A DNA stretch of 47,128 nt from Deltaproteobacteria bacterium (GTDB taxonomy: Bacteria; Myxococcota; B64-G9): NCBI GenBank assembly GCA_003647095.1, contig QMME01000001.1, forward strand, positions 1 to 47,128, written 5' to 3'. The translations under genes and the position numbers were made by a program. Under the pieces are notes generated by a model. That model ran no database searches and was not told the DNA's origin. It saw only the letters and a list, made by a program, of their open reading frames with translations. Numbering within the stretch: position 1 is the stretch's first letter; each line of letters begins with the position of its first letter. This document shows, one piece after another, positions 27,145 to 46,119 of this stretch.

Positions 27145-27540
27145 ATGCGCACCCTGACAAGAGTGTTCAAGGCCCTTGCGGACCAGACCCGGCTGCAGAT
27201 GCTGGGGCTGCTGCTCGAGGCCGGCGAGCTGTGCGTCTGCGACTTCGTCGCGGTGCTGCAGATAACCCAGTCCAAGGCGTCGCGACACCTGCGCCACCTG
27301 GTCGACGCCGGGCTGCTCGACGACCGGCGCGAGGCCGTCTGGGTGTACTTCCGCATCAGCGCCGAGCCGGGGCCGGCCCAGGCCCGGGTACTGGAAGTGC
27401 TGCCCGCGGTGCTTGCCGGCAGGATGCCCGCCGGGCTGTTCGAGCGGTTGGCCGCCTGGCGAGAGAGCAAGGAGCGCCCCGGCAGCGGCTGCCGGGTGTC
27501 GGCCGCCACCGGGGCGGCCGGGCGCGGGGGCGGGCGATGA
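27145..27540 (+). CDS. arsR: ArsR/SmtB-family arsenite-responsive repressor
   Basis: 131 aa. [29 protein letters not shown] carries the ELCVCD As(III)-binding motif and an HTH. Confidence 0.9.
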
Positions 27541-28649
27541 CCGGCCCGGGCGGCGGCGTCGCCGGGAGGCTCGCGGTCCTGGACCGCTTCCTCACCGTCT
27601 GGATATTCCTGGCCATGGGCATCGGCATCGGGGCCGGGTATCTCCTTCCCGGCGCCGTCTCCCTGCTGGAGGAGTTGAGCGTGGGCACGACGTCGATCCC
27701 CATCGCCGTCGGGCTGGTGCTGATGATGTACCCGCCGCTCGCCAGGGTCAGGTACGAACGGCTGGGTTCGGTCTTCCGCAACTTCCGGGTGCTGGGGCTC
27801 TCGCTGGTGCAGAACTGGCTGGTGGGCCCGGTGCTGATGTTCGGGCTGGCAGTGGTCTTCCTGCACGACCGGCCCGAGTACATGGTGGGGCTGATCCTGA
27901 TCGGCCTGGCGCGCTGCATCGCCATGGTCATCGTTTGGAACGACCTGGCCGGGGGCGACACCGAGTACTGCGCCGGGCTGGTGGCCTTCAACTCCATCTT
28001 CCAGGTGCTGTTCTACTCGCTGTACGCCTACCTGTTCATAACCGTCCTGCCCACCTGGCTGGGTCTGGAGGGTGCGGTGGTCGACATCACCATCGGCGAG
28101 ATCGCCGGCAGCGTCTTCATCTACCTGGGCATCCCCTTCATCGCCGGCCTGCTCACCCGCGTCTCGCTGGTGAGGCTCAGGGGCATCGACTGGTACCACA
28201 CGAAATTCATCCCCAGGATAAGCCCCATCACCCTGGTGGCGCTGCTGTTCACCATCGTGGTGATGTTCTCGCTCAAGGGCGGCACCATCGTCCAGCTTCC
28301 CCTCGACGTGGTGCGCATCGCCCTGCCCCTGCTGGTGTACTTCGTGCTGATGTTCTTCATCTCCTTCTTCATGTCCCGGCTGGTGGGCGCCACCCGGGGG
28401 CAGACGGTCACCCTGTCGTTCACCGCCGCTTCCAACAACTTCGAGCTGGCCATCGCCGTGGCCGTGGCCACCTTCGGCATCCAGCACGGGGCGGCCTTCG
28501 CCGCGGTGATCGGTCCCCTGGTGGAGGTGCCGGTGCTGATCGGCCTGGTCAACGTGGCCCTGTGGCTGGGCCGGAGGTACTTCCCGGCCGCCGCCGCGGC
28601 AGCTCCGGCCGGGGAGCGGGCCGGAGCGGTCGAGAGGAGATCCCCGTGA
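27537..28649 (+). CDS. acr3: ACR3-family arsenite efflux transporter
   Basis: The internal ATG overlaps the arsR stop (ATGA). [55 protein letters not shown] are ACR3 hallmarks. Confidence 0.9.
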
Positions 28650-33804: not shown

Positions 33805-33808
33805 TACC

Positions 33809-34247: not shown

Positions 34248-34283
34248 GGATGGACCTGACGTAGGAGCGGCATCCCGCTCTCC
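34248..34283 (+). repeat. Copy 2 of the 36-bp direct repeat
   Basis: It is preceded by ..PGAEVNAGMDLT*, which looks like the last codons of another ankyrin gene. Confidence 0.9.
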
Positions 34284-34360
34284 TGGTATTGCCTGCCGGC
34301 GAGCCACGATGTTATTGTGGGTGCGTTCCCCTAGAGTCGATCATGAAGGCGGAAAGGAGG

Positions 34361-34543
34361 ATGTCTCCCATGGACGGTGCGATTATGGGAATGGTTGCGG
34401 TCATTATCCCCGTGGTCAGCGTTACCGCGGGGTTGGTGGTCGTGATCCGGGACCAGCTGAAAAAGATCGGCAAGAGGCTCGACGAGATCGAACGTGCTCT
34501 CGCACGGGACGGGAGTTCCGATCGGCGCAGTCGCCCTTGCTAG
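34361..34543 (+). CDS. Small (60 aa) single-TM protein
   Basis: AGGAGG precedes the ATG at 34361. MSPMDGAIMGMVAVIIPVVSVTAGLVVVIRDQLKKIGKRLDEIERAL. It is followed by the hairpin CTATCT-cgatcgt-AGATAG. Confidence 0.4.
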   Translation: MSPMDGAIMGMVAVIIPVVSVTAGLVVVIRDQLKKIGKRLDEIERALARDGSSDRRSRPC

Positions 34544-34566
34544 ATTGTCTATCTCGATCGTAGATA

Positions 34567-34960
34567 GTGGGCAAGGAGACTAGCGGTGGATTTCCTGACC
34601 CCCCTGAAAGAGCTGGCGGACGACTCGTAGATGGAGGCGCTGGAGGAGGTCTTCGCCGACCTGAACAAGGCGCCCGCCCGATTTGTCAAAAATCGCAGAG
34701 GCCTTCGACCGTTGCGTCGCCGATCATTCCAACGGAGATGCCTTCGCCGTCCTTTCACTGACGGTCGAGGGCTTCCGAGCCCTTCTGCGGCGGCTCGTTG
34801 AGAAAGGGCAACAGCCCCAACAGGAGGTTCTGCGCTATGACGCCGATCCTCGGGTGTCGGCGCCTCAAGTGGTGTCTGCCGTCCAGGCTACGCTGGATCT
34901 CCCCGAGGATGCGGCGACGCTCTATCTCCAAACACTGGCGCTGGCCCGGCCGGCGGTCAG
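34567..34960 (+). pseudogene. Decayed ORF (in-frame stop plus frameshift), 3'-truncated by the convergent paralog B gene
   Basis: Protein-like text continues across a TAG (..FLTPLKELADDS*MEALEEVFADLNKAP) and a frame change (..SKIAEAFDRCVADHSNGDAFAVLSLTVEGFRALLRRL...LDLPEDAATLYLQTLAL). Family not identified. Confidence 0.3.
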
Positions 34961-35430
34961 GGCGCCGGGTCGCCGAACCAGGCGATCAGCAGTGGTCGTG
35001 GTGCACGGGGGGTCCCCAGCCAGAGGGCAAAGGGGGCGTCACAGACAAAGTTGCGGAGGTAGGCATCACCTCTGCCGAGGACGAGTTCCTCGTCGGGACC
35101 CTGCTCGCCGCTCCCGTCCAGGGAGAGCACCACCTCGGGCCCGGGGCCGGCGCTCCGGGCCGCGATTGGCGGTATCTTGAGCGCATCCTCGCGGCCGAGC
35201 CGCTCCCGCCGCCGCGGCTCGATGCCATTCCAGAGCCCGAAGCAGGGCAGCACCTTGTCACCGAACCACACGCCGAGTTGCCGCCACGGGAACGACTCGG
35301 ACCAGCGTGGGGTCAGGTGGACGGCGGCCGCCGCCCAGAAGCAGTTGCGGGCTCGTGGTTCGAGCGGGGTGGTCAGCTGTACCTGGTCCAGTTCGATGAT
35401 GGTCTGCTCCCGTTTTCCTGGCTGAAGCAA
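34957..35430 (-). CDS. Hypothetical protein, paralog B of the 33142..33804 family
   Basis: 157 aa with a TTG start, 7 nt downstream of the Fic remnant stop. For the conserved blocks see paralog A. Confidence 0.55.
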   Translation of the reverse strand: MLQPGKREQTIIELDQVQLTTPLEPRARNCFWAAAAVHLTPRWSESFPWRQLGVWFGDKVLPCFGLWNGIEPRRRERLGREDALKIPPIAARSAGPGPEVVLSLDGSGEQGPDEELVLGRGDAYLRNFVCDAPFALWLGTPRAPRPLLIAWFGDPAP

Positions 35431-35436
35431 TTTTTT

Positions 35437-36006
35437 TCAAACCTCCGGCGTATCAGTCTCATAGAAGTTCTGGACCACCTGCTCCATTTGGGCGACTTCC
35501 TCGTCGGATAAGAAGTTGAAGAGAGCCTCTGCTTGAGGCGTCATGTCGATATACCTGTACCAAAGAGCAGTCTCGTTGTGAACGGTCATGCGGTCGTTTT
35601 CGTCGAGCGTGTATTCCACCAACGACATAAGAGGGCGAGAGAAGGCTTCCAGGGAAGCATCATAGTCGGCAAGGCTTTTCAGCATGGCCGCTGACACGGG
35701 GAACATGATTCCTTCGGGAATAAAGCCACGACGAGCGAGGATATTGTAGACCAGGAACCGGTGGATTCGACCGTTGCCATCTTCGAACGGATGTAGAAGC
35801 ACGAATCCGAATGCTACAACCGCGGATCTTCGATGAAGCACCGGTTCAACGCTACCTGCCAATCATCTCGATTGGGATTTCATCTGCGCTTTCACATTCA
35901 TGATGTCTCTTCTCGGGACATAGCGAAAAAACCACGAATTCGACCACGCTCGAAGAAGGTACCCGGTACACTGGAGAGGACGCGTGGCAGGAAGGACCGA
36001 CCTGAG
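35437..36006 (-). pseudogene. Fic/DOC-family gene remnant (5'-truncated, with an in-frame TGA)
   Basis: The Fic motif HPFEDGNGRIHRF is present. The same frame continues upstream (..YVPRRDIMNVKAQMKSQSR*LAGSVEPVLHRRSAVVAFGFVLLHPF) through a TGA at 35863-35865, then ends against the tauE stop at 36007. It is much shorter than typical Fic proteins of about 350-400 aa. Confidence 0.75.
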
Positions 36007-36813
36007 TTATTTCAAATTGGTACTGTGAAACGCATTGTACACCATGATAACTGCAGCCAACCAGTTGGTGTAGGCAAAGAGCTTCTTCAGATTCTTCGGC
36101 TTCGTTTTCAGCGCGAAGCGTCCTCCAAGGAGTCCCCCAACGATGGTCACAAATGCCAATGGGACGGCGACTTCGGGGTGAAAATCTCCGCGCGCCGCAT
36201 GTCCGGCAAAGCCCATCAGGGCGGTACCGGCGACGAGTACGGATGCAGTTCCCACGGCCACGCGCATGGGCACCGCGCACGCCAGCACCATCAACGGTAC
36301 CAAGAACGAGCCGCCAGAAACCCCCACCATGCCGGCGGCAAAACCGACCAGCAGGGTCACGGGCAGCGCCACCAGCAGGTTCACGCCGATTGTGGTGTCA
36401 CCGACTTTGACAGTGACAACGCCAAGTTTCTTGTCGCCAAGCGCCTTCTTGCCTTCCGATACGGGTATCAGCATCGCGGCCCCGGACACAAACAGCATCA
36501 CAGCGAAGATTAGCTTCAGGGAAAAGCCACTGAACACGTGGGAAAAATATCCGCCGGCCAAGGCGGAAAGAGCGGTGGAAACGCCAATGAGCAGCGCCAG
36601 CGGCCAGGAGACGGACTTGTTCTTGTGGAAAACGACCATGGCCGCCACCGCGGCGGAGAAGAGGATGAACTGGCCAGTCGTGGCCGCCTGATGTATCGGG
36701 ATTCCGGACATCGCCAGAATCAGTACATAGAAATTCCCGCCGCCTTTGCCCACCATGGTCATCAACACCGCGACCGCGAAGATGAGACCACCCACTATGA
36801 TGGTTGTCCACAT
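36007..36813 (-). CDS. TauE/SafE (DUF81) family anion exporter, copy 1
   Basis: 268 aa, about 8 TM helices, GKGGGNF and VSGGSFLVPLM motifs. Confidence 0.85.
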   Translation of the reverse strand: MWTTIIVGGLIFAVAVLMTMVGKGGGNFYVLILAMSGIPIHQAATTGQFILFSAAVAAMVVFHKNKSVSWPLALLIGVSTALSALAGGYFSHVFSGFSLKLIFAVMLFVSGAAMLIPVSEGKKALGDKKLGVVTVKVGDTTIGVNLLVALPVTLLVGFAAGMVGVSGGSFLVPLMVLACAVPMRVAVGTASVLVAGTALMGFAGHAARGDFHPEVAVPLAFVTIVGGLLGGRFALKTKPKNLKKLFAYTNWLAAVIMVYNAFHSTNLK

Positions 36814-36825
36814 CGATTAGTACTC

Positions 36826-37218
36826 CTAATGTTCGGCCTCGAGCACATCGACAACTTTCCCCGGCTTGAGCGCCTCTGCAAGAACAGTGTACCCACCCTC
36901 GATGATGCGAGCTTCTGAAAAACCCTGCTGCAACAGATAGACGAAGGCAATGGCCGATCTGACCACCGCGGAACAAAACACTGCAATAGGCTTGTCCCTC
37001 GGGATCTCGTCTATCCTTGCGGGCAATTGGTCGAGCGGGATGTTCAAGACCTCGATGTTGCAATGATGCTTCAACCCGAACGACAGTGTGGCCACCTCCT
37101 TTTCCGAGCGAACATCTAGAAGCACTGCCTTGTCCATGGCCAGGAACTTCTCGGGCGTGATTTTATGCTTTCCCCTGCCGAAGAACGACAAAGTCAGTCG
37201 TTTGAGCACTTTCTCCAT
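36826..37218 (-). CDS. Rhodanese-domain sulfurtransferase
   Basis: Start at MEKVLKRL behind AGGAGA. AVLLDVRSEKE..IAVFCSAVVRSAIA contains a CxxxxR(S) active-site loop. Confidence 0.8.
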   Translation of the reverse strand: MEKVLKRLTLSFFGRGKHKITPEKFLAMDKAVLLDVRSEKEVATLSFGLKHHCNIEVLNIPLDQLPARIDEIPRDKPIAVFCSAVVRSAIAFVYLLQQGFSEARIIEGGYTVLAEALKPGKVVDVLEAEH

Positions 37219-37256
37219 GTCTATTCTCCTTTCGCAAGTCGAAACCTTCGCGCTGT

Positions 37257-37964
37257 TCACCAGGCAGGCCCACCTTTGGGTCCGGCGTGATGCGGTGCAG
37301 GGGCTTTTCCGAAGCGCACGATGAGCATAAGTTGCACAACGTGCGTGTTCAACCATCTATCGGAGGATCGGCGCTTCGACTCCAGATCGTAGTAGGTGCG
37401 CAAGGCAAGGTGCCTGTCGACAACAAAGTCCATTCCCACCTTAAGGTCGTTCATGTTCAGGCGTGCCTGGTCGCTGTCAAAACGCACCTCGTCGGCGACG
37501 AACAATCGTAGCCAGTCAAGACCCGGTTTCAGGTGGATGTCGAGGTTGTTTCGGTACCTGTAGAACCCGGGTGTGCTGTGCCACTCGTTGCCGTTGCGAT
37601 CCGATATCTTGAGCGGGCCGAACTTGCAATGAAGAATGGCGTCCAGCACCAGCATGTGTATCACATGGTGATCGCCGTCCAGCTTGTCCTTGTGGGCGTA
37701 GTAGGTCTGCAGCGTAAGCCAGGGGAGCAGGTCGGTCCGAACGCCCGCAAAAACCTTCAGTAGCACAAGCCCCTGATCGCGGAATCGCTGCTCGGTGCGG
37801 ATCATCGGGCGCAAGGTGAACCTGTCGCTCACGTCCCCCAGGACATTGTAGTCCATGTCCAGCTTGAACCGGACCTCCTTTGCGGCCATGGCGTTCGTCG
37901 CCGTTGCCAGCGCGACGCAGAAAACGGCCAGGGACGCCCACGTATGACCCGAAAATCTCTTCAT
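37257..37964 (-). CDS. DUF2490-like outer-membrane protein
   Basis: Start at MKRFSGHTWASLAVFCVALATATNAMA (signal peptide), with an ATGA overlap with the upstream tauE. The Y/R/D-rich strands are typical of DUF2490. The 509-aa track ORF is an out-of-frame extension into tauE. Confidence 0.65.
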   Translation of the reverse strand: MKRFSGHTWASLAVFCVALATATNAMAAKEVRFKLDMDYNVLGDVSDRFTLRPMIRTEQRFRDQGLVLLKVFAGVRTDLLPWLTLQTYYAHKDKLDGDHHVIHMLVLDAILHCKFGPLKISDRNGNEWHSTPGFYRYRNNLDIHLKPGLDWLRLFVADEVRFDSDQARLNMNDLKVGMDFVVDRHLALRTYYDLESKRRSSDRWLNTHVVQLMLIVRFGKAPAPHHAGPKGGPAW

Positions 37965-38707
37965 GCAACCAGGCCCCAGATCATCTTCGCCGCGATTCCC
38001 AGAAGGACGATTCCGATGATCAGCTTGACCTGCTCCCGCTTGAGCTTGTCTGTCATCAGCCAGGCGCCGACTATTGCGCCCAGCGCCGACCCGACGGCGG
38101 TGAACCCCAGGATGGTGTAGTCCATCGAGCCGAGGGTTGCATGTCCCAGGAAGCCCGACAGGGACGAGAAGATGACGATGAAAGATGTCGTCGCCGAGGC
38201 TTTCTTGGGATTGATACCGAGCCAAACCAAGACCGGCACGATGAAGTTGCCGCCGCCGACCCCGAGCAGGCCGCCGAGGAACCCGGCGAAGCCGCCTATG
38301 GCCACGCCGAAAACGACCTGCTTGCCGTGGGATTGCTCGACCTGCCGCTCCTTCGGCTTGTAGAACAGCATCATAGCGGCGGCGAACAGTAAAAAGCCTA
38401 CGAAGCCCCAGAGCAGTACATTGCGCTGCAACCCCTGACTGACCCAGGCTCCCAGGGGCGATAACGCGGTGGCAACCATCAGGATCGGTATCGCAACCTT
38501 CCACAGCACCAGCTTGGCGCGGATGAAGCGATACGATGCGAAGCACATGGCGATGGCGTTGAGCAACAGCGCCGTGGCCATGGCCACGTGGATGTCTATC
38601 CCCAGGGCGACGAAAACCGGAATGAGAATGAAGGCCGCACCGACGCCGGCGATGGTCAACAGAGCGGTAAACAGAAATGTCACCAGTCCGGCGATCAATG
38701 AAGTCAT
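37961..38707 (-). CDS. TauE/SafE (DUF81) family anion exporter, copy 2
   Basis: 248 aa, multi-TM, GVGGGNFIVPVLV motif. Confidence 0.85.
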   Translation of the reverse strand: MTSLIAGLVTFLFTALLTIAGVGAAFILIPVFVALGIDIHVAMATALLLNAIAMCFASYRFIRAKLVLWKVAIPILMVATALSPLGAWVSQGLQRNVLLWGFVGFLLFAAAMMLFYKPKERQVEQSHGKQVVFGVAIGGFAGFLGGLLGVGGGNFIVPVLVWLGINPKKASATTSFIVIFSSLSGFLGHATLGSMDYTILGFTAVGSALGAIVGAWLMTDKLKREQVKLIIGIVLLGIAAKMIWGLVA

Positions 38708-38724
38708 GATAATAACCCCCAGTT

Positions 38725-39351
38725 TCAGCTTCTGGAGAGTTCTTGGAGCAGCTCCTGCTGACAGGGGATGCAGACCTTGCGATCACCGATTACCCGGCCA
38801 TACTTCTCCACGACCATGTCGCCACACCGCTCGCACACGAACGAGTCGAAAGTCTCTACCGGTTTGGGCAGCTCTATCGTCTCTATCTCGCCGATCTTGA
38901 GGATCTTTTCGTCTGGCGCGTTCATCACTTGCTCTATTAGAGGCTCGACGATTTCCGGCGGCACCTGTGACGCCGGGATACCCTTTTCGCGGTACTCCTT
39001 GAAGAAGGGTGTCTGCTTGGTTGCCGCCTGCACCTCGGCCCTGGGGACCACACGCACCGACCGACCCGATGCCCGCTCGACCAGGGTCAAGCCGAACTTG
39101 CCGTAACCGAGCTGCTGGATGTTGCCCTTGCCGAAGGTGCAGCCGGTGATCATCTGGATGCCATCGGCGAAGCAGTGGGCGCAGTGGCCTTCCCCCAGCT
39201 CCAGCAGAGCGACCAGCTGGCCGTCCTTGGCACGCTCGACGCCCAGCTTGTTCATCGCCGCCGCTCCCGCGCGCAACCCGAGCGGCATGGCCGGGCACTT
39301 GTGCCCGTGCAGTTTCTGGCCTGCTTCCAGGTATTTTTGGGGCTCGATCAT
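38725..39351 (-). CDS. FmdE-family protein with C-terminal zinc ribbon, copy 1
   Basis: 208 aa. LHGHKCPAMPLGLRAG..CFADGIQMITGCTFGKGN. C-terminal CERCG...CIPC. Confidence 0.8.
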   Translation of the reverse strand: MIEPQKYLEAGQKLHGHKCPAMPLGLRAGAAAMNKLGVERAKDGQLVALLELGEGHCAHCFADGIQMITGCTFGKGNIQQLGYGKFGLTLVERASGRSVRVVPRAEVQAATKQTPFFKEYREKGIPASQVPPEIVEPLIEQVMNAPDEKILKIGEIETIELPKPVETFDSFVCERCGDMVVEKYGRVIGDRKVCIPCQQELLQELSRS

Positions 39352-39442
39352 GTCTTACCTCCCTGAGTTTTAGTTCGTGTCCTCTTCCCGCCGTCCAATC
39401 GGCGGTTACGGTTCATACGATAAGCAAGCCTTGGCCCGGATC

Positions 39443-39459
39443 CTTGATCCGGGATCAAG
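39443..39459. promoter_or_regulatory. FNR/CRP-box-like palindrome CTTGATCC-G-GGATCAAG
   Basis: Perfect 8-1-8 palindrome (TTGAT-N5-ATCAA), 24 nt downstream of the crp stop and about 100 nt upstream of the fmdE-1 ATG. A TATCGT hexamer on the minus strand (39422-39417) would centre the site near -41. It overlaps an alternative palindrome CCCGGATC-CTT-GATCCGGG (39435-39453). Confidence 0.35.
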
Positions 39460-39482
39460 ACGCGATGCTTTTCCGGCCCCGC

Positions 39483-40148
39483 CTACTCGTCCCTTTGTCC
39501 AGAGGCAATCTGCCGCAGGCGTCGCGCATCAAGCACCTGAAGCTTCGGACGGGCGAGCCTCTTCAGCACCCCGGTTTCCACCAGCCGGGTGACGGCTCGA
39601 GAGAAGGTCTCCGGGGTCACTCCGACGTCGGCGGCGAACTCGTGGATCGGTGATGGAACGTCGATGATGGTGGGGTGGGCCTCACCGTCCCCTTCGGGAA
39701 GCAGGAGCGACAAGGCCGCCGCAACGTGCGCAACCGAGCTGCGGTTCGCTTGATTGCCGAGACGCGAGAAGGCCTGCCTCAGACGTTTGCCCAGCGCTTC
39801 GAGCAGGACCATTGCCACCTGTGGATCTTGACGGACGGCCCGGCGCAACGTCGAGCGGGACATCACGCGCGCCTCGACATCGTCCACGGCAATGGCCGTC
39901 GCTGGATAGGGTCCGCCGTCGACAAAGGGCAGGAAGCCAAATACGTCCCCCTCCGAGAACACGTAGAGCAGCACCGACGAACCGTCTGGCAGTACGCGTA
40001 CGGCCTTCACGCGGCCTTTGTCGAGCAGGACCAGACGCCCGGAGACCTCGCCTTCCGTCCACAGCACCTGTCCCGCCCTGTAGCGACGGGGCAGCAGGTA
40101 CGGTTCGAGAACCTTGATGGTCTCGATGTCTTCGATGATCCCGGTCAT
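39483..40148 (-). CDS. Crp/Fnr-family transcriptional regulator
   Basis: 221 aa. cNMP-binding-like beta-roll (YRAGQVLWTEGEVSGRLVLLDKGRVK) and C-terminal HTH (FAADVGVTPETFSRAVTRLVETGVL). There is no N-terminal FNR Cys cluster. Confidence 0.85.
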   Translation of the reverse strand: MTGIIEDIETIKVLEPYLLPRRYRAGQVLWTEGEVSGRLVLLDKGRVKAVRVLPDGSSVLLYVFSEGDVFGFLPFVDGGPYPATAIAVDDVEARVMSRSTLRRAVRQDPQVAMVLLEALGKRLRQAFSRLGNQANRSSVAHVAAALSLLLPEGDGEAHPTIIDVPSPIHEFAADVGVTPETFSRAVTRLVETGVLKRLARPKLQVLDARRLRQIASGQRDE

Positions 40149-40245
40149 CCGAGTCGTTCAGATTCCGTTCTCGTTCGACGAGACGTCGGTGGTAAGCGGA
40201 GGCACAAAGCACCACACCGGTGATGATCCAGAGGCATATCGCCGC

Positions 40246-40851
40246 TCACTCTTCGTAGCCGGAACACGGGATGCAAACGTGCCGATCTCCAACAACCCGA
40301 AGGTACGCCACGGCCACCAGCTCACCGCACTCGGCGCAGGGGTGCAGCCCCATGATCTCGCCGTACTCCTCCCAGGGGTGGGGCTTCACATCACCGATGC
40401 TCAACACCTCTTCCTCGGGGGCATCCCACAGCACGTTCACCATCTCCCAGACCTCCTCCTCGGGGATCTCGGTGGGGGGGATCCCCTGGCCGCGCTTGCG
40501 CATGAAGGCCGACTCGGCCACTTGTTTATGGCGCGTGGGCCGATACGAGACTCGGACCGAGCGCTCGGCCTTCTTGTCAACCAGGGTGAAGGCGAGCTTG
40601 CCCCAACCCGTCTTTTCGATACAGAACTTGCCGAGCGTGCAGCCCGTGGCGTACTGCACGCCGTCGGCGAAGCACTGGGCTCCGTGGTTGTCGCCGATCT
40701 CCAAGATGCAGTGCAGTTCCCCGGACGAGCCGGCCCGCTCGACACCGAGCGCCCTGAGCGCCGCCAGGCCCGCGCGCACGCCGATGGTGCTGGCCCAGCA
40801 CTTGTGACCGTGGAACTTGAACGCATCAATCAGTACATCTCTTTCCGACAT
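40246..40851 (-). CDS. FmdE-family protein with C-terminal zinc ribbon, copy 2
   Basis: Start at MSERDVLIDAFKFHGHKCWAS behind AAGGAG. CFADGVQYATGCTLGK. C-terminal CAECG...CIPC. Confidence 0.8.
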   Translation of the reverse strand: MSERDVLIDAFKFHGHKCWASTIGVRAGLAALRALGVERAGSSGELHCILEIGDNHGAQCFADGVQYATGCTLGKFCIEKTGWGKLAFTLVDKKAERSVRVSYRPTRHKQVAESAFMRKRGQGIPPTEIPEEEVWEMVNVLWDAPEEEVLSIGDVKPHPWEEYGEIMGLHPCAECGELVAVAYLRVVGDRHVCIPCSGYEE

Positions 40852-40919
40852 GGGTTGCACTCCTTTCTCCGTAACATCGTTCAATACTTGACCTCAGGCT
40901 GCAAATGTACTGCCTTCCG

Positions 40920-41225
40920 TCACCCGGCGATCTTGCCCTCACGGATTAGTTCATCTTTCACCGCATCCCAGACGCCCCTCTCCTCGTAGAACTTCCTCAA
41001 CCTGTTCGCGGACGGGAAGCGGATGGCGTTGCCGCGGCACAGTGTGCGACAGGTGCTGCAGCCGACGACGCACTGCAGGGGACGGGCAACCACGGGACCT
41101 CTGTCGGTCCAGTCGAACACATTCTTGCCGCAGTTCATGCACATACCGCACTGAAGGCACCGCGAGAGATCAACCGTGGGATTCCAACCGATCTCTTGAC
41201 GATCGATTGCAGCAAACCACGCCAT
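40920..41225 (-). CDS. Ferredoxin-like protein with two atypical Cys clusters
   Basis: Start at MAWFAAIDRQ behind GGGAGG. CLQCGMCMNCGKN and CVVGCSTCRTLC. It starts 1 nt after the upstream stop. Confidence 0.65.
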   Translation of the reverse strand: MAWFAAIDRQEIGWNPTVDLSRCLQCGMCMNCGKNVFDWTDRGPVVARPLQCVVGCSTCRTLCRGNAIRFPSANRLRKFYEERGVWDAVKDELIREGKIAG

Positions 41226-41226
41226 G

Positions 41227-42045
41227 TCAAACCTCCCTAAAACTCGATCCAACTGGAATGCCCATGCCGGCGCAGGCCTCGAGCAAGGCACGCCTCGAGG
41301 CCGAATCCGTCGACTCGAAGGCCGGCTTGCACTCAACAATTGCAGCTTTTCCGCTGCAGACCTTGACCGCGAAGGCCATGCAAGTCATCTCGCCACACAT
41401 GCCGCAGTTTGTGCCGGGAAGACGGCGTATCAACTCTATTACGTTCGGTTTGGATCTGGCCTCGAAGCTCGGCTCTATCCCGGCCCTGCGGCTCCATGTG
41501 TCGTTGATCGTCTGACGGTAGCGTTCGAGGCACAGCCAGGCGTCCACGATTTCGTCGGCCTTGGCTATGCTGATGGAGCGGGGACGAAGGACGATCATCC
41601 TCTCTCCGTCCATGAAGGACAGTGATGGTCCGTTCCCGCTGTAGGAGGCATTGTCCACCACGGCGTTGAGGTAGGGGATCACGGGTCCGATGTCGTTGGA
41701 CAGGTCCGCGATGACGCGGATCTTGGTGTCGTCCGCCACACACGGCTGTAAGGTGACTATCCGCGCGGTGCCGAATATGTCCTCGGAGAACTCCTGCGCC
41801 TCTCCGGACGGCATTTCGCGACGAGTCGGTCGGTACTCGACCCAGCCCGCGCACGGATAATCATCCCCCAGACACTCCTCCAGTACCGCGCGCTCTTCCC
41901 TCCCCATGACCAGCGCAGGCAGGGCAACCCTGGCCAATGCCGGCACGGGCCGAATCATCCGGCAGACCAGATCTCGCTGGACAAGCACGGCAAGCGCCGC
42001 TTCCAGGCCATCCTCACGTGCAAGGGTGGTGACCATGAGGTCCAT
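41227..42045 (-). CDS. Fe-S cluster domain protein (RnfB/CdhD-type N-terminal FeS motif at its C-terminus)
   Basis: 272 aa. LPGTNCGMCGEMTCMAFAVKV matches the putative Fe-S cluster domain. The N-terminal 200 aa are unrecognised. Confidence 0.6.
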   Translation of the reverse strand: MDLMVTTLAREDGLEAALAVLVQRDLVCRMIRPVPALARVALPALVMGREERAVLEECLGDDYPCAGWVEYRPTRREMPSGEAQEFSEDIFGTARIVTLQPCVADDTKIRVIADLSNDIGPVIPYLNAVVDNASYSGNGPSLSFMDGERMIVLRPRSISIAKADEIVDAWLCLERYRQTINDTWSRRAGIEPSFEARSKPNVIELIRRLPGTNCGMCGEMTCMAFAVKVCSGKAAIVECKPAFESTDSASRRALLEACAGMGIPVGSSFREV

Positions 42046-42096
42046 CCGTATTCCCCTCCATCAGCGGCTCCTGGGCCGGAGCTCGAATACCGGCAT

Positions 42097-42321
42097 TCAC
42101 CCGGGGCTCGAGAGAATCTTTTTCACCTTGGGGCCAAGTCGCTCGACAACGAATCTGTGCGACTCCTCGCGATCCCCGTCCATGAGTATCTGCAGCAGGT
42201 GCAGAACGTCCTCGCGGGATAGGCGTACCAGAATGTCCCGATCCAGCCGCGAGACGAGACCCGAGATTGACTCCGACCAGGCGGGCTTTTCCTTTGACGC
42301 AGTCGATTTCGAGGCTTTCAC
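42097..42321 (-). CDS. Small hypothetical protein (74 aa)
   Basis: GTG start behind GGAGGTGA. Helical, charged composition. It lacks the CPxP motif, so it is not a TusA/YeeD homolog. Confidence 0.45.
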   Translation of the reverse strand: MKASKSTASKEKPAWSESISGLVSRLDRDILVRLSREDVLHLLQILMDGDREESHRFVVERLGPKVKKILSSPG

Positions 42322-42439
42322 GTTTCACCTCCGAACAGGTTTGCCGACCACGGCACATCGATGAGCAGCACGGTCGCTATGAGCCGAACCGGTTGCACTC
42401 CGCGTCGTGCCGTACCTGCGGGCCGAGCATTGCGTTCTA

Positions 42440-43696
42440 CTAGCGGCCGAACCCGACCATGTACAACCTGGTCGTAGCCCAGTTTGCCAGCACCACGGTG
42501 ATAAAGAAGAGCATGTTGCCCACGCTCATCAGGGCCACGCCGCTCATGATGTTGCCGACCACACACCCCCCGGCGATGGCCGCTCCAGCGCCGGTCAGAA
42601 TGCCCCCGAAGAAGGCCACGATGATCTCATCAGGCGGCTTGGGCTTCAGAGAAAACCGGCCGCGCAGACGCGCAGACACATGGGAACCGAGAACCAGACA
42701 AACCACCAGGATGACGAGCCACCACACTACGTGTTTCCGGGGCTTGTGAGTAGCCTGCTTATGCCCCCTGCTGTCTTTCTCGACGGCTTTCGCGGGCTGC
42801 TTCTTGTACACGGAATGTACCGGGTAATCGGTGGCCAGAACCAGCACGTCCAGCACGCCGTGTGTTACGCCCAGGGGATAGTTGCGACCGCTCTCGGCAG
42901 AGGAGACATAGGCGGCGAGCGCAAGCACACCGATGGCGATGCCCGAGTGCCAGGGTTTCCAGGGCCGGGTGAGAACCCGCTTTACTATCGGCTTGCTCTC
43001 TTTCTCGTCTCCGGCGTGCGGGGCCAACCTCGCACGGTGGCGCCGACGGATGAACAGAGCGATTGCGAGCGTCGCACCGGCTATGATGACGGCGAGCAGC
43101 CAGTAGGGCAGGCCGGTGAGCGAGGCCAGCGTCACCGACTTGCCGTCTGCCGACGTGATCACGTGCTGTTTGAGCGACTTGGCAAAGCCGTTCAGCGGCC
43201 CATAGGCGACGGCCGAAACACCGATGGGAATGCCGACCAGGGCGGCCATGGAGTTCAAGTTCCCCTGGCCCGACTTGAACAGCGTGCCGCTGACGCAGCC
43301 GCCGGCCAGGACGATACCGACACCGAAGATCGCCCCGCCGACCAGGTCATTGGCCCAGATGAAAGGCTTCGGCGCCAGCCGAATCCATCCCAGTTCGGAG
43401 CCGATTGCGAACATGACCATGCTGGTGGCGATGACGACCCAGAGCCCCTCGAGCTTGCGCGTGTCTTTCATCATGATCACTTCGCTGAAGGCCGATGAGC
43501 CGCACAGATCGGATTTTTCCAGGAAGAAGCCGAACAGGAACCCGATCGGCGCGGCGGTCAGCACCCAGAGACCGGTCGCGGCGGCGATAACCACCGCCGC
43601 GACAACACCCAGGATGCCGACGATCAAGGTAGCCCGCCAGGGACCGGCGGATACGTGATCATCGTGATTGCCCGTTGGAACCTGATCTTTGCCCAT
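42440..43696 (-). CDS. YeeE/YedE-family sulfur(selenium)-compound transporter (two fused halves)
   Basis: 418 aa. SDLCGSSAF, GGCVSGTLFKSGQG and IAGGCVVGNIMSG conserved-Cys loops. GAAAGGAG precedes the ATG. Confidence 0.85.
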   Translation of the reverse strand: MGKDQVPTGNHDDHVSAGPWRATLIVGILGVVAAVVIAAATGLWVLTAAPIGFLFGFFLEKSDLCGSSAFSEVIMMKDTRKLEGLWVVIATSMVMFAIGSELGWIRLAPKPFIWANDLVGGAIFGVGIVLAGGCVSGTLFKSGQGNLNSMAALVGIPIGVSAVAYGPLNGFAKSLKQHVITSADGKSVTLASLTGLPYWLLAVIIAGATLAIALFIRRRHRARLAPHAGDEKESKPIVKRVLTRPWKPWHSGIAIGVLALAAYVSSAESGRNYPLGVTHGVLDVLVLATDYPVHSVYKKQPAKAVEKDSRGHKQATHKPRKHVVWWLVILVVCLVLGSHVSARLRGRFSLKPKPPDEIIVAFFGGILTGAGAAIAGGCVVGNIMSGVALMSVGNMLFFITVVLANWATTRLYMVGFGR

Positions 43697-43794
43697 CTTT
43701 CACTCCTTTCACGATTTTGACGAGTCGGCATGGACAGGAAGGGCTCCGGCCGGCAGCAGCCAGTCCAACACGAAGCCCAGAGCGATGAACACGT

Positions 43795-43962
43795 TACGCC
43801 CGGGGCGACGACGAGCGTCTTGTCTCCTTCAGAGCGGAAGGTTACTCGCCCGACGAGAACTACGAACACCACGTCCTCCTGCATCCGGTACGGCGGAATC
43901 TGGGCACCGGCGGCGAGCTCGATGCGACGGACCTTCATCTGGTCGTGCCCGAACAATAAGGA
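43795..43962 (-). pseudogene. Cupin-domain fragment
   Basis: SLLFGHDQMKVRRIELAAGAQIPPYRMQEDVVFVVLVGRVTFRSEGDKTLVVAPG is cupin-like. The expected C-terminal His-containing strand is absent. It abuts the permease stub. Confidence 0.4.
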
Positions 43963-43970
43963 CGCTCCGG

Positions 43971-44231
43971 GCCGAGGTACTTCATGACTGAGCCCTGGCT
44001 GACAAAGACACTGATGGCGCCGGCGATGAAGAAGGCCGGCACCAGGCAGAGCAGCACGTGCTCCCGGGCGTACCATTTGAGGAGCTTCAGGCCCTCGCCG
44101 ACGGCGGACATGAAGCGCTCGCTGCCTGCGGGCAGAAACCAGCAGGCGGCGAAAACCGCCAGCATGATCGATAGCCTGGTGCGCTCTTTCACCGCCGCCT
44201 TCCGAGATCCGCAGCGTGGCAACATGGCCAT
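43971..44231 (-). pseudogene. N-terminal stub of a COG0701/ArsP-type permease
   Basis: LKWYAREHVLLCLVPAFFIAGAISVFVSQGSVMKYLG matches the first ~87 aa of this ~330-aa permease family. The similarity stops at 43971. Confidence 0.5.
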
Positions 44232-44265
44232 ATTGGCAACATTGATTCAAAAAAAACCGGCCCAT

Positions 44266-44562
44266 TCATGCCCGCTCCTTGATTACCTGCATGGCGCAGG
44301 AAAAGAAGTCCATCACGCATGGGGTAAGCAGCCTGTAGTAGACCACGTTGCCTTCGCGCCGGTCCTCTACGATGCCGTGGCTGCGAAGCACGGCCAGGTG
44401 CTTGGACACGGTAGAGCGATCCAGGCCCACCAGATCGGTCAGTTCTCCCACCGAGCACTCGCCGCGGGAGAGCCGGTCGACTATCTTCAGGCGCGACTCG
44501 TTGGCCAGGGCCTTGAGCACCCGCGCCTGCATCTTGAAAACACTGTCATCGGCCCGTGGCAT
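44266..44562 (-). CDS. ArsR/SmtB-family regulator lacking the CVC arsenite site (candidate thiol/persulfide sensor)
   Basis: Start at MPRADDSVFKMQARVLKALANESRLKIVDRL behind GGAGGAG. It has ECSVGEL in place of ELCVCD, plus C-terminal Cys residues (TPCVMDFFSCAM). Confidence 0.85.
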   Translation of the reverse strand: MPRADDSVFKMQARVLKALANESRLKIVDRLSRGECSVGELTDLVGLDRSTVSKHLAVLRSHGIVEDRREGNVVYYRLLTPCVMDFFSCAMQVIKERA

Positions 44563-44586
44563 GGCTCCTCCAGCACTGCCGCGGAA

Positions 44587-44615
44587 AGTGTGTGGCATGT
44601 TGGCCAAGTTGTCAA
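44587..44615 (-). promoter_or_regulatory. Candidate promoter/operator of the arsR-led cluster
   Basis: On the minus strand: TTGACA (44615-44610), 17 nt spacer, CACACT (44592-44587). It overlaps the imperfect palindrome CATGTTGG/CCAAGTTG (44596-44611), whose core is TTGGCCAA. Confidence 0.35.
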
Positions 44616-45044: not shown

Positions 45045-45647
45045 TTGTCCATGGCATTTTTGGGAGAATTGATCATCCCTGTGGCCACAATCATCGTTGG
45101 ACTCCTGTTTTTTTGGGGTCTGTCTGAATTGTTTTTTCTCGATATTTTAGGACTGGGACGTAGAAAAGCGATTCATCAATTACCAAAGGCGGCAAAAAAA
45201 TTCGGCTTCAAAGAAGACAAAAGCAAAACATCCCACAACTACGGCAAATACACCGGAACATATGGCGGGTATAATTTTGTGGTTAACCCGGAGAGCAGTG
45301 CCACCATCGAGTTGCACATGGACCCTGTTCCAGGCCTTGAGGAGATCGCCACATACAGGAAACAAACAAATTTCGATAGTGGAAATAATGGGTTTGATGG
45401 TTTTCTCAAAACACGTCTTGCATCCGATGACCTTGGGAGAAAACTGCGGGATGCCACCCCTTTTCTGGAGCATACCGTGCAGTTCGTCAAGCGCTGGAAG
45501 CGACCGTGCAACTATTTCCAGATTTACAAAGACACCATTTATTTCTCCTTCAAGTACGGCATGGGCCATTATATTCCGGCCTCTGTTCTGGAGGAAATTG
45601 TCCCGGATCTGGTTAAACTTGCCGATCTATTGCAGGCTATACCTTAA
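45045..45647 (+). CDS. Hypothetical membrane-anchored protein in a low-GC segment
   Basis: 200 aa. AAGGAGAG RBS and an N-terminal TM helix. K/N/F/Y-rich composition and roughly 40-45% GC by eye, against about 65-70% for the flanks. Confidence 0.6.
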   Translation: MSMAFLGELIIPVATIIVGLLFFWGLSELFFLDILGLGRRKAIHQLPKAAKKFGFKEDKSKTSHNYGKYTGTYGGYNFVVNPESSATIELHMDPVPGLEEIATYRKQTNFDSGNNGFDGFLKTRLASDDLGRKLRDATPFLEHTVQFVKRWKRPCNYFQIYKDTIYFSFKYGMGHYIPASVLEEIVPDLVKLADLLQAIP

Positions 45648-45714: not shown

Positions 45715-46119
45715 TTACTTTTTCTTGAGCAACGCATTCTGCGTGACGCTGATAAAGGCCGTGCCCGCCTGGTTGAAGCGGTCCATGACCTGGGCGAAGT
45801 CGAGCAGCGAGCGCGACAGGCGGTCGACCTCGTTGACCACCACGATGTCGATCTTGCCAGCCTCGATGTCGGCCAGTAGGCGCTGGAACGCGGGCCGCTC
45901 CAGGTTGGCGCCGGTGAAGCCGCCGTCGTCGTACTGCTCCTTGATCAGCTTCCAGCCGTCGTGCGCCTGGGACTTGATGTACCGCTCGCAGGACTCGCGC
46001 TGGGCGTCCAAGGTGTTGAAGTCTTGATCGAGCCCGATGGAGGTCGACTTGCGAGTGTAGATCGCACACCGCCTGGTCTCCGGCGGCGGGCCGGCGTTGC
46101 CGTTTCGGCGCTTCCTCAT
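45715..46119 (-). pseudogene. Large serine recombinase, catalytic N-terminal domain only (3'-truncated)
   Basis: [11 protein letters not shown] (catalytic Ser), [28 protein letters not shown]. Homology ends at FISVTQ, followed by NALLKKK*, where full-length proteins continue for more than 350 aa. Confidence 0.8.

Follow-up and report, generated by a model that had tools for sequence, protein, structure and literature searches.

Organization and integrity of the locus

The window considered here, a 47,128-nt stretch of a deltaproteobacterial contig (QMME01000001.1), carries between positions 36007 and 44562 a minus-strand cluster in which 11 genes are intact and three survive only as remnants. 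Gene calls and profile matches bore out the order given in an earlier note made from the sequence alone, which runs from an ArsR-type repressor through permease and cupin-like pieces, a YeeE/YedE transporter, a 74-aa ORF, an Fe-S protein, a ferredoxin, FmdE-2, Crp, FmdE-1, TauE, a DUF2490-like protein and a rhodanese to a second TauE. Of the two ATGA overlaps reported there, that between the TauE stop codon and the DUF2490-like start codon (37961/37964) is present, whereas the Fe-S protein and ferredoxin genes (41225/41227) are separated by a 1-nt spacer (TGAcATG); the other gaps measure 12-131 nt. A resolvase and a DUF2924 gene adjoin the cluster. A canonical arsR and acr3 arsenite-efflux operon, detected by gene calls and tblastn, is located on the plus strand at 27145..28649, 7.4 kb from the cluster and outside it; its ArsR contains an ELCVCDF motif and its Acr3 scores 433 bits against TIGR00832 (cut-off 283).

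Contigs from other samples match the cluster at 99.5-99.98% identity, also across the remnants, and an assembly artefact was therefore rejected. Chance juxtaposition was rejected because the same parts are found together again in unrelated genomes, so that the neighbourhood is conserved and not random. A rival proposal is that the region is a decaying mosaic, produced by rearrangements in a mobile island, in which the current gene order has no joint function. Such a proposal can draw on the ArsP, DUF169 and cupin-like remnants described below, on near-identical haplotypes that differ by a crp indel and the replacement of a Fic gene, on the neighbouring resolvase and DUF2924 gene, and on a GC content of 60.6% compared with 66.8% across the contig's initial 26 kb. 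It is nevertheless improbable, since the 11 genes are intact, tightly spaced and provided with ribosome-binding sites, dN/dS values for Crp, FmdE and TauE in comparison with orthologues are 0.05-0.22, and distant genomes share its sub-cassettes crp-fmdE-tauE, Fe-S protein-ferredoxin and TauE-rhodanese-barrel-FmdE. The intact genes are under purifying selection, although the remnants leave room for decay in part of the cluster.

The ArsR-headed segment

At the head of the cluster is a 98-aa ArsR/SmtB-family repressor (44266..44562; Pfam HTH_5), which scores 92 bits against NCBIfam NF033788 (cut-off 55) and whose orthologues are the ArsRs found upstream of arsP-FeS operons. The canonical CVC arsenite site, present in 82-86% of these orthologues, is absent from the cluster protein, which has a variant cysteine pattern (GECSVGEL and TPCVMDFFSC), and its effector may therefore differ. 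The repressor is followed directly by an ArsP_1-family permease remnant (43965..44204, within an ORF at 43935-44231), recognized by tblastn and Pfam, that corresponds to residues 1-82 of ∼395, the 3′ four-fifths of the gene having been lost. The remnant covers positions 8-51 of the 294-position Pfam profile, is 71% identical in tblastn to the N-termini only of the ArsP_1 proteins of two other loci (L005 and L006), and is carried in the same form (99.8% identity) by a third (L008). Between it and yeeE is a possible cupin-like gene fragment (∼43700..43935) with a sub-threshold Cupin_2 match (E 0.01, 16 bits, cut-off 27.2); its whole ORF has no Pfam match at E ≤ 0.01. The 74-aa ORF (42097..42321) belongs to no Pfam family but aligns in tblastn with residues 265-325 of the L006 DUF169 protein (39% identity, E 9e-9), which identifies it as the surviving C-terminal part of a DUF169 gene. 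Retention of only 82 ArsP residues and a DUF169 tail indicates that an ars-type operon was rearranged in the window, and the two remnants show descent of the cluster from such an operon.

The YeeE/YedE-family membrane transporter (418 aa, 42440..43696; Pfam Sulf_transp, E 3e-66) resembles the thiosulfate uptake protein YeeE (TsuA), which acts with YeeD (TsuB; 6LEO, 8J4C), in its fold and in the three relay cysteines, C22, C91 and C293 of StYeeE (6LEO), all of which are kept. It differs in its additional loops and N-terminal extension, in having no YeeD/TusA partner, and in a score of 176 bits, far under the TsuA equivalog cut-off of 400. The subfamily was found not in cysteine-synthesis or sulfur-oxidation loci but in metal(loid) islands, in all five contexts: four were arsR-arsP-arsE operons, two of these also containing acr3, and the fifth was DGC-RND-YeeE-porin-Crp.

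The next intact gene encodes the 272-aa Fe-S protein (41227..42045). Its C-terminal 33-55 residues, a [4Fe-4S] domain (PF04060), have in common with the [4Fe-4S] entry domain found in RnfB and in the large subunit of the corrinoid iron-sulfur protein its four conserved cysteines, and are 29% identical to chain 9fzy_F; in contrast to those proteins the domain is C-terminal here, and no corrinoid or Rnf partner is present. The preceding ∼200 residues form a double ferredoxin-like/ACT-like domain which has no model in Pfam and gave no significant match to a known structure. The family was surveyed at 80 loci, one per species and spread over more than 12 phyla, where its neighbours included ArsR (62 of 80), Acr3 (54), an ArsE-type thioredoxin (48), ArsP_1 (47), DsbD (36), ArsC (29), ArsM (24) and DGC (21), the majority of them lying within 2-5 kb on the same strand. 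NCBIfam models identified the neighbouring transporters as Acr3 in 49 of 49 cases, the phosphatase-fold proteins as ArsC in 24 of 28 and the methyltransferases as arsenite methyltransferase in 22 of 25, and unbiased clustering of the neighbours added ArsD and ArsA. The gene is followed by that for a 101-aa two-cluster ferredoxin-like protein (40920..41225) with two cysteine motifs and weak Fer4-family matches, homologues of which occur at 8/80 of the Fe-S loci and 9/80 of the FmdE loci described below.

The crp-fmdE-tauE segment and downstream genes

FmdE-2 (40246..40884, likely start 40851; Pfam FmdE, E 5e-28) and FmdE-1 (38725..39351; E 4e-31) each consist of an FmdE core and a zinc ribbon, with four cysteines in FmdE-2, and each has a His2Cys2 metal site, the ligand residues of which are invariant in A2 for FmdE-2. 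In this they are like the structural-genomics PF02663 proteins 2GVI, 3D00 and 2GLZ (PMC2954224), in which the core is joined to a treble-clef zinc ribbon and with which the cluster proteins share the metal ligands (FHGHxC and Cys); 2GVI is the best structural match of FmdE-1 (E 1e-32, FHGHKCP conserved). FmdE-2 shares 76% identity with the FmdE of L006, which has Crp as its neighbour. Here the Crp/Fnr-family regulator (39483..40148; 221 aa, no cysteines; Pfam cNMP_binding and HTH_Crp_2) lies between the two fmdE genes, on an 892-bp segment that is missing in some 99.5%-identical haplotypes. FmdE-1 is the partner of the downstream TauE/SafE (TSUP) inner-membrane anion permease (37961..38707; Pfam TauE, E 1e-44), which is 87% identical to its orthologue at L090 (dN/dS 0.05).

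Among 80 metagenome loci of the FmdE subfamily, TauE was encoded at 54 and directly after FmdE at 36, and Crp at 21, in nine of them upstream of FmdE-TauE; this conserved gene pair, often behind Crp, does not appear in the published description of the family (PMC2954224). ArsR (24/80), cation-efflux proteins (18/80), RND/OEP components (11-12/80) and porins of the phosphate (14/80) and alginate (7/80) types were also found, and Syntrophus has a fusion of FmdE with a cation-efflux transporter. A rival reading has the cluster balance or export divalent soft-metal cations (Zn, Cd, Ni, Co), with FmdE as a cytosolic metal-binding chaperone or sensor and the ArsR/SmtB protein sensing the cation. The metal ligands of the FmdE N-domain bound Zn/Ni in crystals, and not arsenic, and the majority of family members adjoin metal-ion transporters (PMC2954224). 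The cluster, however, includes no cation transporter, the FmdE partners are anion-type permeases here and anion-selective porins occur in relatives, and the Fe-S and YeeE subfamilies are tied specifically to arsenic genes, so that cation handling is rather improbable.

Still less credible, at the level of a very small chance, is the idea that the cluster takes up or processes molybdate or tungstate, or thio-forms of these, on behalf of Mo/W enzymes. FmdE was named for its co-transcription with such enzymes in methanogens (PMC2954224), oxyanion-type permeases are present in the cluster alongside the anion porins of relatives, and an NCBIfam MobB/Fe-S fusion model gives one partial match to the 272-aa protein. 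Yet mod, tup, moa, moe and fwd were not found among the recurrent neighbours at 160 loci, which were resistance and efflux genes, and in the published survey formylmethanofuran dehydrogenase adjoined only 13 of 208 FmdE genes (PMC2954224); the cluster FmdE genes are likewise unlinked to it.

The DUF2490-like protein (37257..37964) begins with a signal-peptide-like sequence and is possibly located in the outer membrane, its DUF2490 match being sub-threshold (26.1 bits, cut-off 29.8); homologues come after FmdE/TauE at five other loci (L006, L090, L091, L092 and L144). It is followed by a single-domain rhodanese (36826..37218; Pfam Rhodanese) with the catalytic cysteine in FCSAVVRS, for which gene callers offer an alternative start giving 144 aa, and whose nearest counterparts among solved structures are rhodanese domains from CoA-persulfide/disulfide reductases. 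A second TauE/SafE-family permease (36007..36813; Pfam TauE, E 1e-35) completes the cluster. At two further loci (L156 and L160), TauE-rhodanese-porin-FmdE adjoins arsR-arsC-acr3.

Sulfur trafficking or metal(loid) resistance

The earlier note had read the region as a free-standing system that traffics thiosulfate, sulfite, persulfide or the selenium counterparts of these. As an assembly unrelated to metal(loid)s and controlled by a persulfide-sensing ArsR-type repressor, this can draw on several features: relay cysteines kept in YeeE, two TauE permeases, a rhodanese akin to persulfide-carrier domains, and a repressor lacking the CVC motif, from a family that includes persulfide sensors and with BigR as its second-best NCBIfam match. 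Sulfur-handling parts are indeed present, and a small repressor over a TauE-type permease and rhodanese-type sulfurtransferases recalls the BigR/SqrR/CstR operons (S. aureus cst, Xylella bigR). The BigR match is nonetheless far under its cut-off (58 versus 155 bits), and the sensing cysteine pair is missing at the BigR/SqrR positions, RLKIVDRL occupying the place of the alpha-2 cysteine. As the note had itself stated, no persulfide dioxygenase, SQR, Sox, Dsr or TusA domain was called within the cluster, and the companions are metal(loid)-resistance genes. The Fe-S protein seldom co-occurs with YeeE or with rhodanese, each being encoded beside it in only 2 of 80 species, compared with Acr3 or ArsC within 10 kb in 57 of 80. 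Since both the Fe-S and the FmdE genes, like the YeeE subfamily, turn up consistently in arsenic/metal(loid) resistance islands, and the window retains ArsP and DUF169 remnants, the trafficking reading is not supported and now seems unlikely. The outcome that the note had named as refuting it, association with another characterized pathway, holds in substance for the largely characterized ars/metal(loid) island but not for Mo/W maturation.

The cluster is built from cassettes that uncultured anaerobes repeatedly carry in their arsenic/metal resistance islands. The first of these (cassette A) comprises arsR-(arsP_1)-(DUF169)-Fe-S protein-ferredoxin together with YeeE and represents a degraded version of an operon that is widespread, arsR-arsP-arsE(-YeeE)-Fe-S. 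In cassette B, crp-fmdE-tauE precedes the secreted DUF2490-like protein, the rhodanese and the second TauE, and the second FmdE lies upstream. The region is best interpreted, with a probability of roughly 60%, as a rearranged, ArsR-headed variant of an ars-type metal(loid)-stress island in an anaerobic, sulfidic-sediment deltaproteobacterium. As in the ArsR-ArsP-ArsE(PF13192)-DGC operon of Pseudodesulfovibrio mercurii ND132, an ArsR stands at the head with an ArsP_1 gene directly downstream, here a mere remnant; the arsenic induction of that operon provides experimental support for the core (10.1101/2022.10.17.512643). In relatives this operon also contains ArsE-type thioredoxin, DGC, DsbD, Acr3, ArsC and ArsM, whereas in the window ArsP and ArsE have been lost. 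The YeeE, Fe-S protein, ferredoxin, two FmdE, Crp, two TauE, rhodanese and DUF2490-like protein set the cluster apart from any described ars system and, as the note had supposed, the combination matched no described pathway in the literature searched.

In the proposed scheme, ArsR would be released by a thiophilic metalloid signal, arsenic being the likeliest, with Crp as a second input. YeeE, the two TauE permeases and the DUF2490-like protein would carry an oxyanion or thio-oxyanion across the envelope, while the rhodanese would accept or donate sulfane sulfur. FmdE dimers might hold a soft metal(loid) at the His2Cys2 site and so serve the neighbouring permease as its carrier or sensor, and the Fe-S protein and ferredoxin may supply or drain electrons. 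Thiol-relay transporters, a persulfide-type rhodanese, metal-binding FmdE and two Fe-S proteins probably act on a thiophilic oxyanion, for which arsenic is the likeliest candidate; that the actual substrate is an arsenic-sulfur species such as thioarsenate is a tentative suggestion, with the odds against it.

Several observations count against this arsenic interpretation. The cluster contains no intact arsenic-specific gene, ArsP being broken and acr3 lying outside, and judged by homology YeeE, TauE and rhodanese are handlers of sulfur compounds. The variant cysteine pattern of the ArsR and the Zn/Ni found in FmdE crystals weigh in the same direction. With RND, cation-efflux and chromate-transporter genes as neighbours, several metals are indicated and not arsenic alone, and association in resistance islands can reflect co-selection instead of a shared pathway. 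The genes of the cluster belong to arsenic/metal resistance islands, and several of them have never been studied before; the ars-linked YeeE, the pairing of FmdE with TauE and the family of the Fe-S protein appear to be undescribed so far.

Gene content and organization of the cluster

Every gene named in the earlier note was recovered by ORF listing and profile searches between 36007 and 44562, on the minus strand and in the order that had been given. The ArsR-type regulator is followed by an ArsP_1 stub, YeeE, a 74-aa ORF, a 272-aa Fe-S protein with a C-terminal PF04060 domain (41227–42045) and a 101-aa two-cluster ferredoxin, and then by an FmdE-like protein with a zinc ribbon (FmdE-2; 40246–40851/40884), Crp (39483–40148), a second FmdE with a zinc ribbon (FmdE-1; 38725–39351), TauE, a DUF2490-like protein, rhodanese and a second TauE. 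GGAGG-like ribosome-binding sites precede most of these genes. Of the two ATGA overlaps previously claimed, that between TauE and the DUF2490-like gene (37961/37964) is genuine, but the Fe-S protein and ferredoxin genes (41225/41227) are separated by a 1-nt spacer (TGAcATG); spacing is tight elsewhere too, the other gaps measuring 12–131 nt. A promoter scan returned no promoter-like sites and Rfam no RNA families in the window, while terminator-like sites numbered 14 against 7.6 expected from shuffles, several of them within coding sequence and none judged informative.

Both TauE proteins carry the full-length TauE Pfam domain (153 and 124 bits; cut-off 32.6) and belong to the TauE/SafE (TSUP) family, and the nearest solved relatives of the rhodanese are persulfide-carrier domains of CoA-persulfide reductases. 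Two other labels proved weaker than had been implied: the 'cupin stub' matches at E 0.01 at best and the DUF2490 match lies below the Pfam cut-off (26.1 versus 29.8 bits). Since the single-sequence structure model of the latter protein failed (pLDDT 33), its assignment to the outer membrane rests on the sub-threshold match and a signal-like N-terminus.

The GenBank record is a MAG contig ('Deltaproteobacteria bacterium', locus tags DRI34_002xx) in which the Fe-S protein, YeeE and Crp are 'hypothetical'. Contigs of other samples agree with the window at 99.5–99.98% identity, even across the stubs, and the arrangement is therefore no assembly artefact. Values of dN/dS between 0.05 and 0.22 against orthologues of Crp, FmdE and TauE indicate that the intact genes have been kept by selection. 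This selection, together with the recurrence of the cassettes elsewhere, contradicts an explanation by decay pure and simple, although the cluster is clearly rearranged and, in this copy, partly degraded.

Ancestry and genomic setting

The regulator at the head of the cluster has the character of an ars operon repressor (HTH_5, E 5e-13; NF033788, 92.4 bits versus 55) and carries GECSVGEL in place of the arsenite cysteine motif (ELCVCDL type). Among orthologous ArsRs heading arsP-Fe-S operons, 82–86% have the canonical CVC and 73% a C-terminal PCx6C pair; the window ArsR and those of two related loci (L005 and L012) keep the PCx6C pair and have GEC[ST][VA]G instead of CVC. The window protein falls well short of the BigR/SqrR-type sensor model (NF040642, 57.9 versus 155), and its helix alpha-2 reads RLKIVDRL where HlyU has ILCML at the same alignment place, which we take to be the location of the sensing cysteine of BigR and SqrR.

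The cluster contains no intact transporter for arsenic efflux, whether Acr3, ArsB or ArsP. Searches by tblastn with proteins of related loci showed that the ArsP_1 remnant (44204–43965) retains residues 1–82 of ∼395 at 71% identity and that the 74-aa ORF is the final 61 residues of a DUF169 protein, which in the related locus L006 is encoded between ArsP_1 and the Fe-S gene. As judged from these sequences, the window cluster descends from an ars-type operon, the more likely ancestral order being arsR-arsP-(arsE)-YeeE...DUF169-Fe-S, from which deletions would have taken arsE, the 3′ portion of arsP and the bulk of the DUF169 gene. A separate, canonical arsR-acr3 operon, with its own ArsR (ELCVCDF) overlapping acr3 (TIGR00832, 433 bits versus 283), lies 7.4 kb from the cluster on the opposite strand (27145–28649, plus). 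The genes between the two encode NhaA, a zinc-ribbon protein and an ankyrin-repeat protein.

The cluster has a GC content of 60.6%, compared with 66.8% in the first 26 kb of the contig, and a resolvase and a DUF2924 gene are found at 45.7–46.7 kb; this GC drop and the neighbouring resolvase hint that the cluster is located at the edge of a mobile element. The serine-recombinase (Resolvase) N-terminal ORF and the DUF2924 gene lie just past ArsR (45715–46667, minus), beside a 200-aa ORF that matches no family (45045–45647, plus) and where the GC content is 52%. Neither a tRNA gene nor convincing direct or inverted repeats were found flanking the cluster. On the other side, at 32934–35898, the related haplotypes L170–L172 have an intact 509-aa Fic gene; in the window, L007 and L173 the sequence differs over ∼3 kb and contains only a Fic fragment (residues ∼302–450) at 35422–35883. 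The high-GC region 1–26000 is chromosomal and housekeeping-like in appearance (an EF-G paralogue, enoyl-CoA hydratase, acyl-CoA synthetase and a DUF4143 ATPase), and also contains long predicted ORFs that match no Pfam family, such as 6259–9678 (1139 aa) and 18920–21661 (913 aa).

The 272-aa Fe-S protein and its neighbourhoods

The C-terminal PF04060 domain of the 272-aa protein scores above the gathering threshold (45.8 bits versus 23), and its [4Fe-4S] cysteines (C214, C217, C222 and C239) are invariant; so are another cysteine, the fifth, within a PCVAD motif, and the helix AKADEIVDAW. The four-cysteine motif is shared with the large subunit of the corrinoid iron-sulfur protein (CFeSP) and with RnfB, but the protein is not a full-length member of either family, every NCBIfam equivalog scoring far below cut-off (e.g., 42.5 versus 306). 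Its N-terminal 199 residues match no Pfam family even at E ≤ 10. In an AlphaFold model (pLDDT 87) the first ∼190 residues are predicted to form two ferredoxin-like halves, and the last ∼55 residues match the [4Fe-4S] domain of CFeSP. A Foldseek search of the PDB with the model gave no match at E < 1e-3, with weak resemblance to ACT regulatory domains and TATA-binding protein. The predicted fold is suggestive of a ligand-binding module linked to a cluster through which electrons would enter.

More than 400 close homologues (46–54% identity) are known under names such as 'ArsR family metal-binding transcriptional regulator' (JGI) and '(Fe-S)-binding protein' (NCBI), and a profile search of 1.84 billion representative proteins returned 136 clusters at E ≤ 1e-30. 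The family comprises a long (∼270 aa) and a short (∼180 aa) size class. Neighbourhoods were sampled by a scan of one genome per species, giving 80 loci, all from MAGs, in Brocadiia, Phycisphaerae, Syntrophales, Myxococcales, Acidobacteriota, Thermoleophilia, Actinomycetes, Victivallales, Verrucomicrobiota, Spirochaetota, Leptospirales, Aminicenantes and Omnitrophota. Flanks were annotated with profiles built from seed proteins, and a family was counted when found within 10 kb of the Fe-S gene. By this measure ArsR accompanies the Fe-S gene in 62 of the 80 loci, Acr3 in 54, an ArsE-type thioredoxin (TIGR00412) in 48 at a median distance of 362 nt, ArsP_1 in 47 at a median of 1.1 kb (immediately upstream in 21), DsbD in 36, an ArsC-type phosphatase in 29, arsenite methyltransferase in 24 and DGC in 21, most such neighbours being on the strand of the Fe-S gene. 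When the neighbour names were independently re-tested against NCBIfam, 49/49 transporters were confirmed as acr3, 24/28 phosphatase-fold proteins as ArsC and 22/25 methyltransferases as arsenite methyltransferase; unbiased clustering of the leftover ORFs brought in ArsD and ArsA, together with a metallophosphoesterase, DUF6951 and components of heavy-metal efflux.

Genomes usually hold one or a few copies of acr3, from which we estimate the chance of finding it in a random 20-kb window at ∼1%; against this the observed 68% represents a strong association. The 272-aa Fe-S protein serves as a marker for arsenic islands. The ArsR-ArsP-ArsE-DGC core of such islands is arsenic-induced in Pseudodesulfovibrio mercurii ND132 (10.1101/2022.10.17.512643). 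By contrast with the ars genes, sulfur-type parts are rare near the Fe-S gene, YeeE and rhodanese each occurring in 2 of the 80 loci and TauE in 7. FmdE is near the Fe-S gene in five loci, and six more match a cation-efflux/FmdE profile.

Three Syntrophus MAGs (L002, L003 and L024; 5335–9579) have a long Fe-S gene opposite a divergent operon, whose products are a cation-efflux-FmdE fusion, a sigma-54 activator bearing an ArsE-like thioredoxin domain at its N-terminus, a CMAS-type methyltransferase and a short (173-aa) form of the Fe-S protein. In L005, an ars island also holding the Fe-S protein and YeeE, an ArsC-type reductase (6772–7488) carries, fused at its N-terminus, a domain of the 'DF family (seleno)protein' type (NF049942, 77 bits versus 70).

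A YeeE subfamily linked to ars operons

The window YeeE is a clear Sulf_transp member (Pfam, E 3e-66). It has in common with the thiosulfate transporter YeeE/TsuA the fold and the three relay cysteines of the solved structure 6LEO (C22, C91 and C293), which all align to cysteines, but differs in scoring far below the TsuA equivalog cut-offs (NF052577, 175.7 versus 400; NF041049, 118.7 versus 645) and in having no adjacent YeeD/TusA-type partner, either in the ORFs of the cluster or in the genes called on identical contigs. The same searches bore out the earlier statement that the usual sulfur partners are missing, with neither a sulfur-oxidation enzyme nor a TusA-like domain found.

The subfamily (∼408 aa, 55–67% identical) gave 822 matches, and its context was available from five long contigs. 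In four of these a single operon combines ArsR and ArsP_1 with YeeE and an ArsE-type thioredoxin, and two of the four carry Acr3 as well; one of the four, from Desulfobacterales, continues with a short Fe-S protein, Acr3, rhodanese and DGC. The fifth context reads DGC-OEP-RND-YeeE-porin-Crp. By its sequence relationships, then, the window YeeE is drawn from the same gene pool as ars operons, and since its relatives are regular members of arsR-arsP-arsE operons, the idea of YeeE as an intruder that split an arsP-DUF169 operon was dropped.

Corrinoid-related genes adjoin several arsR-arsP-arsE-YeeE operons (L175, 9232–10941; L174, 9241–9507; L177, 1–2132), the set comprising a B12-binding/URO-D methyltransferase, a B12-binding_2 fragment, a CFeSP large subunit, a pterin-binding methyltransferase and DUF3786. 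These genes may have a connection with corrinoid-dependent methylation of metalloids and with the CFeSP-type Fe-S domain found in the 272-aa protein.

The FmdE-TauE pair and Crp

Both window FmdEs have the FmdE core (PF02663; 98 and 108 bits versus a gathering score of 22.9) and retain the metal ligands (FHGHxC and Cys) as well as the four-cysteine ribbon, the ligands being invariant or nearly so in the family alignment. The best structural match of FmdE-1 is Thermoplasma 2GVI (E 1e-32). In published crystals Zn or Ni is bound at the FmdE ligand site, and most family members adjoin metal-ion transporters (PMC2954224). No genetic link to formylmethanofuran dehydrogenase, the original FmdE role, was seen: the window cluster has no fmd or fwd gene, and none recurs in the neighbourhoods of 160 loci. 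FmdE-1 (38725–39351, minus; RLB59981.1) and many close relatives are named 'tRNA CCA-pyrophosphorylase' in GenBank, which looks like a propagated mis-annotation.

Scanning metagenomes with the FmdE alignment gave 80 loci, most of them short (median length 4.6 kb); TauE is present in 54 and lies directly 3′ of FmdE in 36. Crp is present in 21, and in nine precedes FmdE-TauE. Metal(loid) neighbours in these loci include ArsR (24), cation-efflux proteins (18), RND/OEP (11–12), ArsP_1 (12), Acr3 (8) and ArsC (8), and porins are of phosphate type (14) or alginate type (7). Two loci (L156 and L160) have the order TauE-rhodanese-(porin)-FmdE-ArsR-ArsC-Acr3, and FmdE is fused to a cation-efflux transporter in Syntrophus. 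A close homologue in a cultured species, Mesoterricola silvestris, shows 71% FmdE identity. Thermoleophilia copies encoded ahead of TauE share 57% identity with FmdE-1, and FmdE-2 is 76% identical to the FmdE beside Crp in L006, a locus with a near-complete parts list (TauE, OEP, RND, rhodanese, ArsR, ArsP_1, DUF169, Fe-S protein, thioredoxin, DsbD, YeeE, a DUF2490-like fragment, FmdE and Crp). The locus L090, with 75% DNA identity to the window, reads Crp-FmdE-TauE-TauE followed by a DUF2490-like gene.

An 892-bp segment containing crp (39331–40222) is missing from the otherwise 99.5%-identical contigs L007 and L172 and present in L171 and L173. In the crp-less form the N-terminus of FmdE-1 is different and longer (224 aa) and overlaps the end of FmdE-2.

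Proposed function and alternatives

The cluster is probably a variant of the ars-type metal(loid) island (roughly 60%). The working proposed here is drawn from domain content, conserved ligands and relay cysteines, recurrent neighbourhoods, remnants and purifying selection. ArsR would be relieved by a thiophilic metalloid, most likely arsenic, with Crp contributing a second signal. An oxyanion or thio-oxyanion could cross the envelope via the YeeE and TauE permeases, with the DUF2490-like secreted protein (porins in relatives) taking part; rhodanese would handle sulfane sulfur, FmdE would bind the soft centre and act with the adjacent permease, and the Fe-S protein and ferredoxin would carry out a redox step.

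The earlier note correctly took the combination to be undescribed and conserved, and misjudged the system of which it is part. It had proposed a free-standing system for sulfur or selenium trafficking, a reading that is disfavoured, as the neighbourhoods are ars islands and the ArsR cysteine pattern is not of the persulfide type. Selenium was rejected, there being no selenium-specific marker and no in-frame TGA pattern, with YedE selenium-type models far below cut-off. Homeostasis of divalent metals would suit the FmdE crystals and the links to cation efflux, but is improbable given the anion-type permeases and the arsenic-specific neighbours. Handling of molybdate or tungstate is more improbable still, as no Mo/W genes recur among the neighbours.

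Within the island reading, thio-arsenic is an attractive substrate because carriers of sulfur type overlap with neighbours of arsenic type, and such species are possible, though unlikely, substrates of the cluster. It is slightly more doubtful that the Fe-S protein, the ars-linked YeeE, rhodanese and FmdE-TauE-porin form an unrecognised pathway for thiolated arsenic in anaerobes of sulfidic habitats. Its substrates would be thioarsenate, thioarsenite or methylated thioarsenicals: a YeeE-type cysteine relay would move the thiosulfate-like thio-oxyanion, rhodanese would strip or add sulfane sulfur, the Fe-S protein and ferredoxin would provide redox chemistry, and FmdE would pass the metalloid to TauE for export. 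Arsenic in sulfidic sediments is largely present as thio-species. Monothioarsenate has been likened to thiosulfate, and the uptake and enzymology of thioarsenates described as an open question (PMC6620896).

Implications for anaerobic arsenic biology

Arsenic islands and their ArsR-ArsP-ArsE-DGC core are already known. Neither the 272-aa Fe-S family, nor the ars-linked YeeE subfamily, nor the Crp-FmdE-TauE(-porin-rhodanese) module was found described in the searchable literature, which leaves most subscription journals outside; that literature yielded nothing linking FmdE-like proteins to metals or TauE relevantly to arsenic, and mentions PF04060 in one unrelated paper. Most of what is known of arsenic resistance comes from aerobes and a few cultured anaerobes. 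Broad and clean, the genomic signal points to an open question in anaerobic arsenic biology, each mechanistic step being inferred. Three uncharacterised families, namely the 272-aa Fe-S protein with its unmodelled N-terminal domain, the YeeE subfamily and the FmdE-TauE pair, are found in or beside arsenic and metal(loid) islands in more than a dozen phyla of uncultured anaerobes, and even if their association were mere co-selection in islands, annotation would gain. FmdE-like proteins, whose structures were solved in 2010 and which to our knowledge still have no assigned function, gain a role that can be tested, that of partnering anion permeases in the handling of metal(loid)s, and the occurrence of cysteine-relay transporters, persulfide-type rhodanese and redox proteins in ars operons could fill the thio-arsenic gap.
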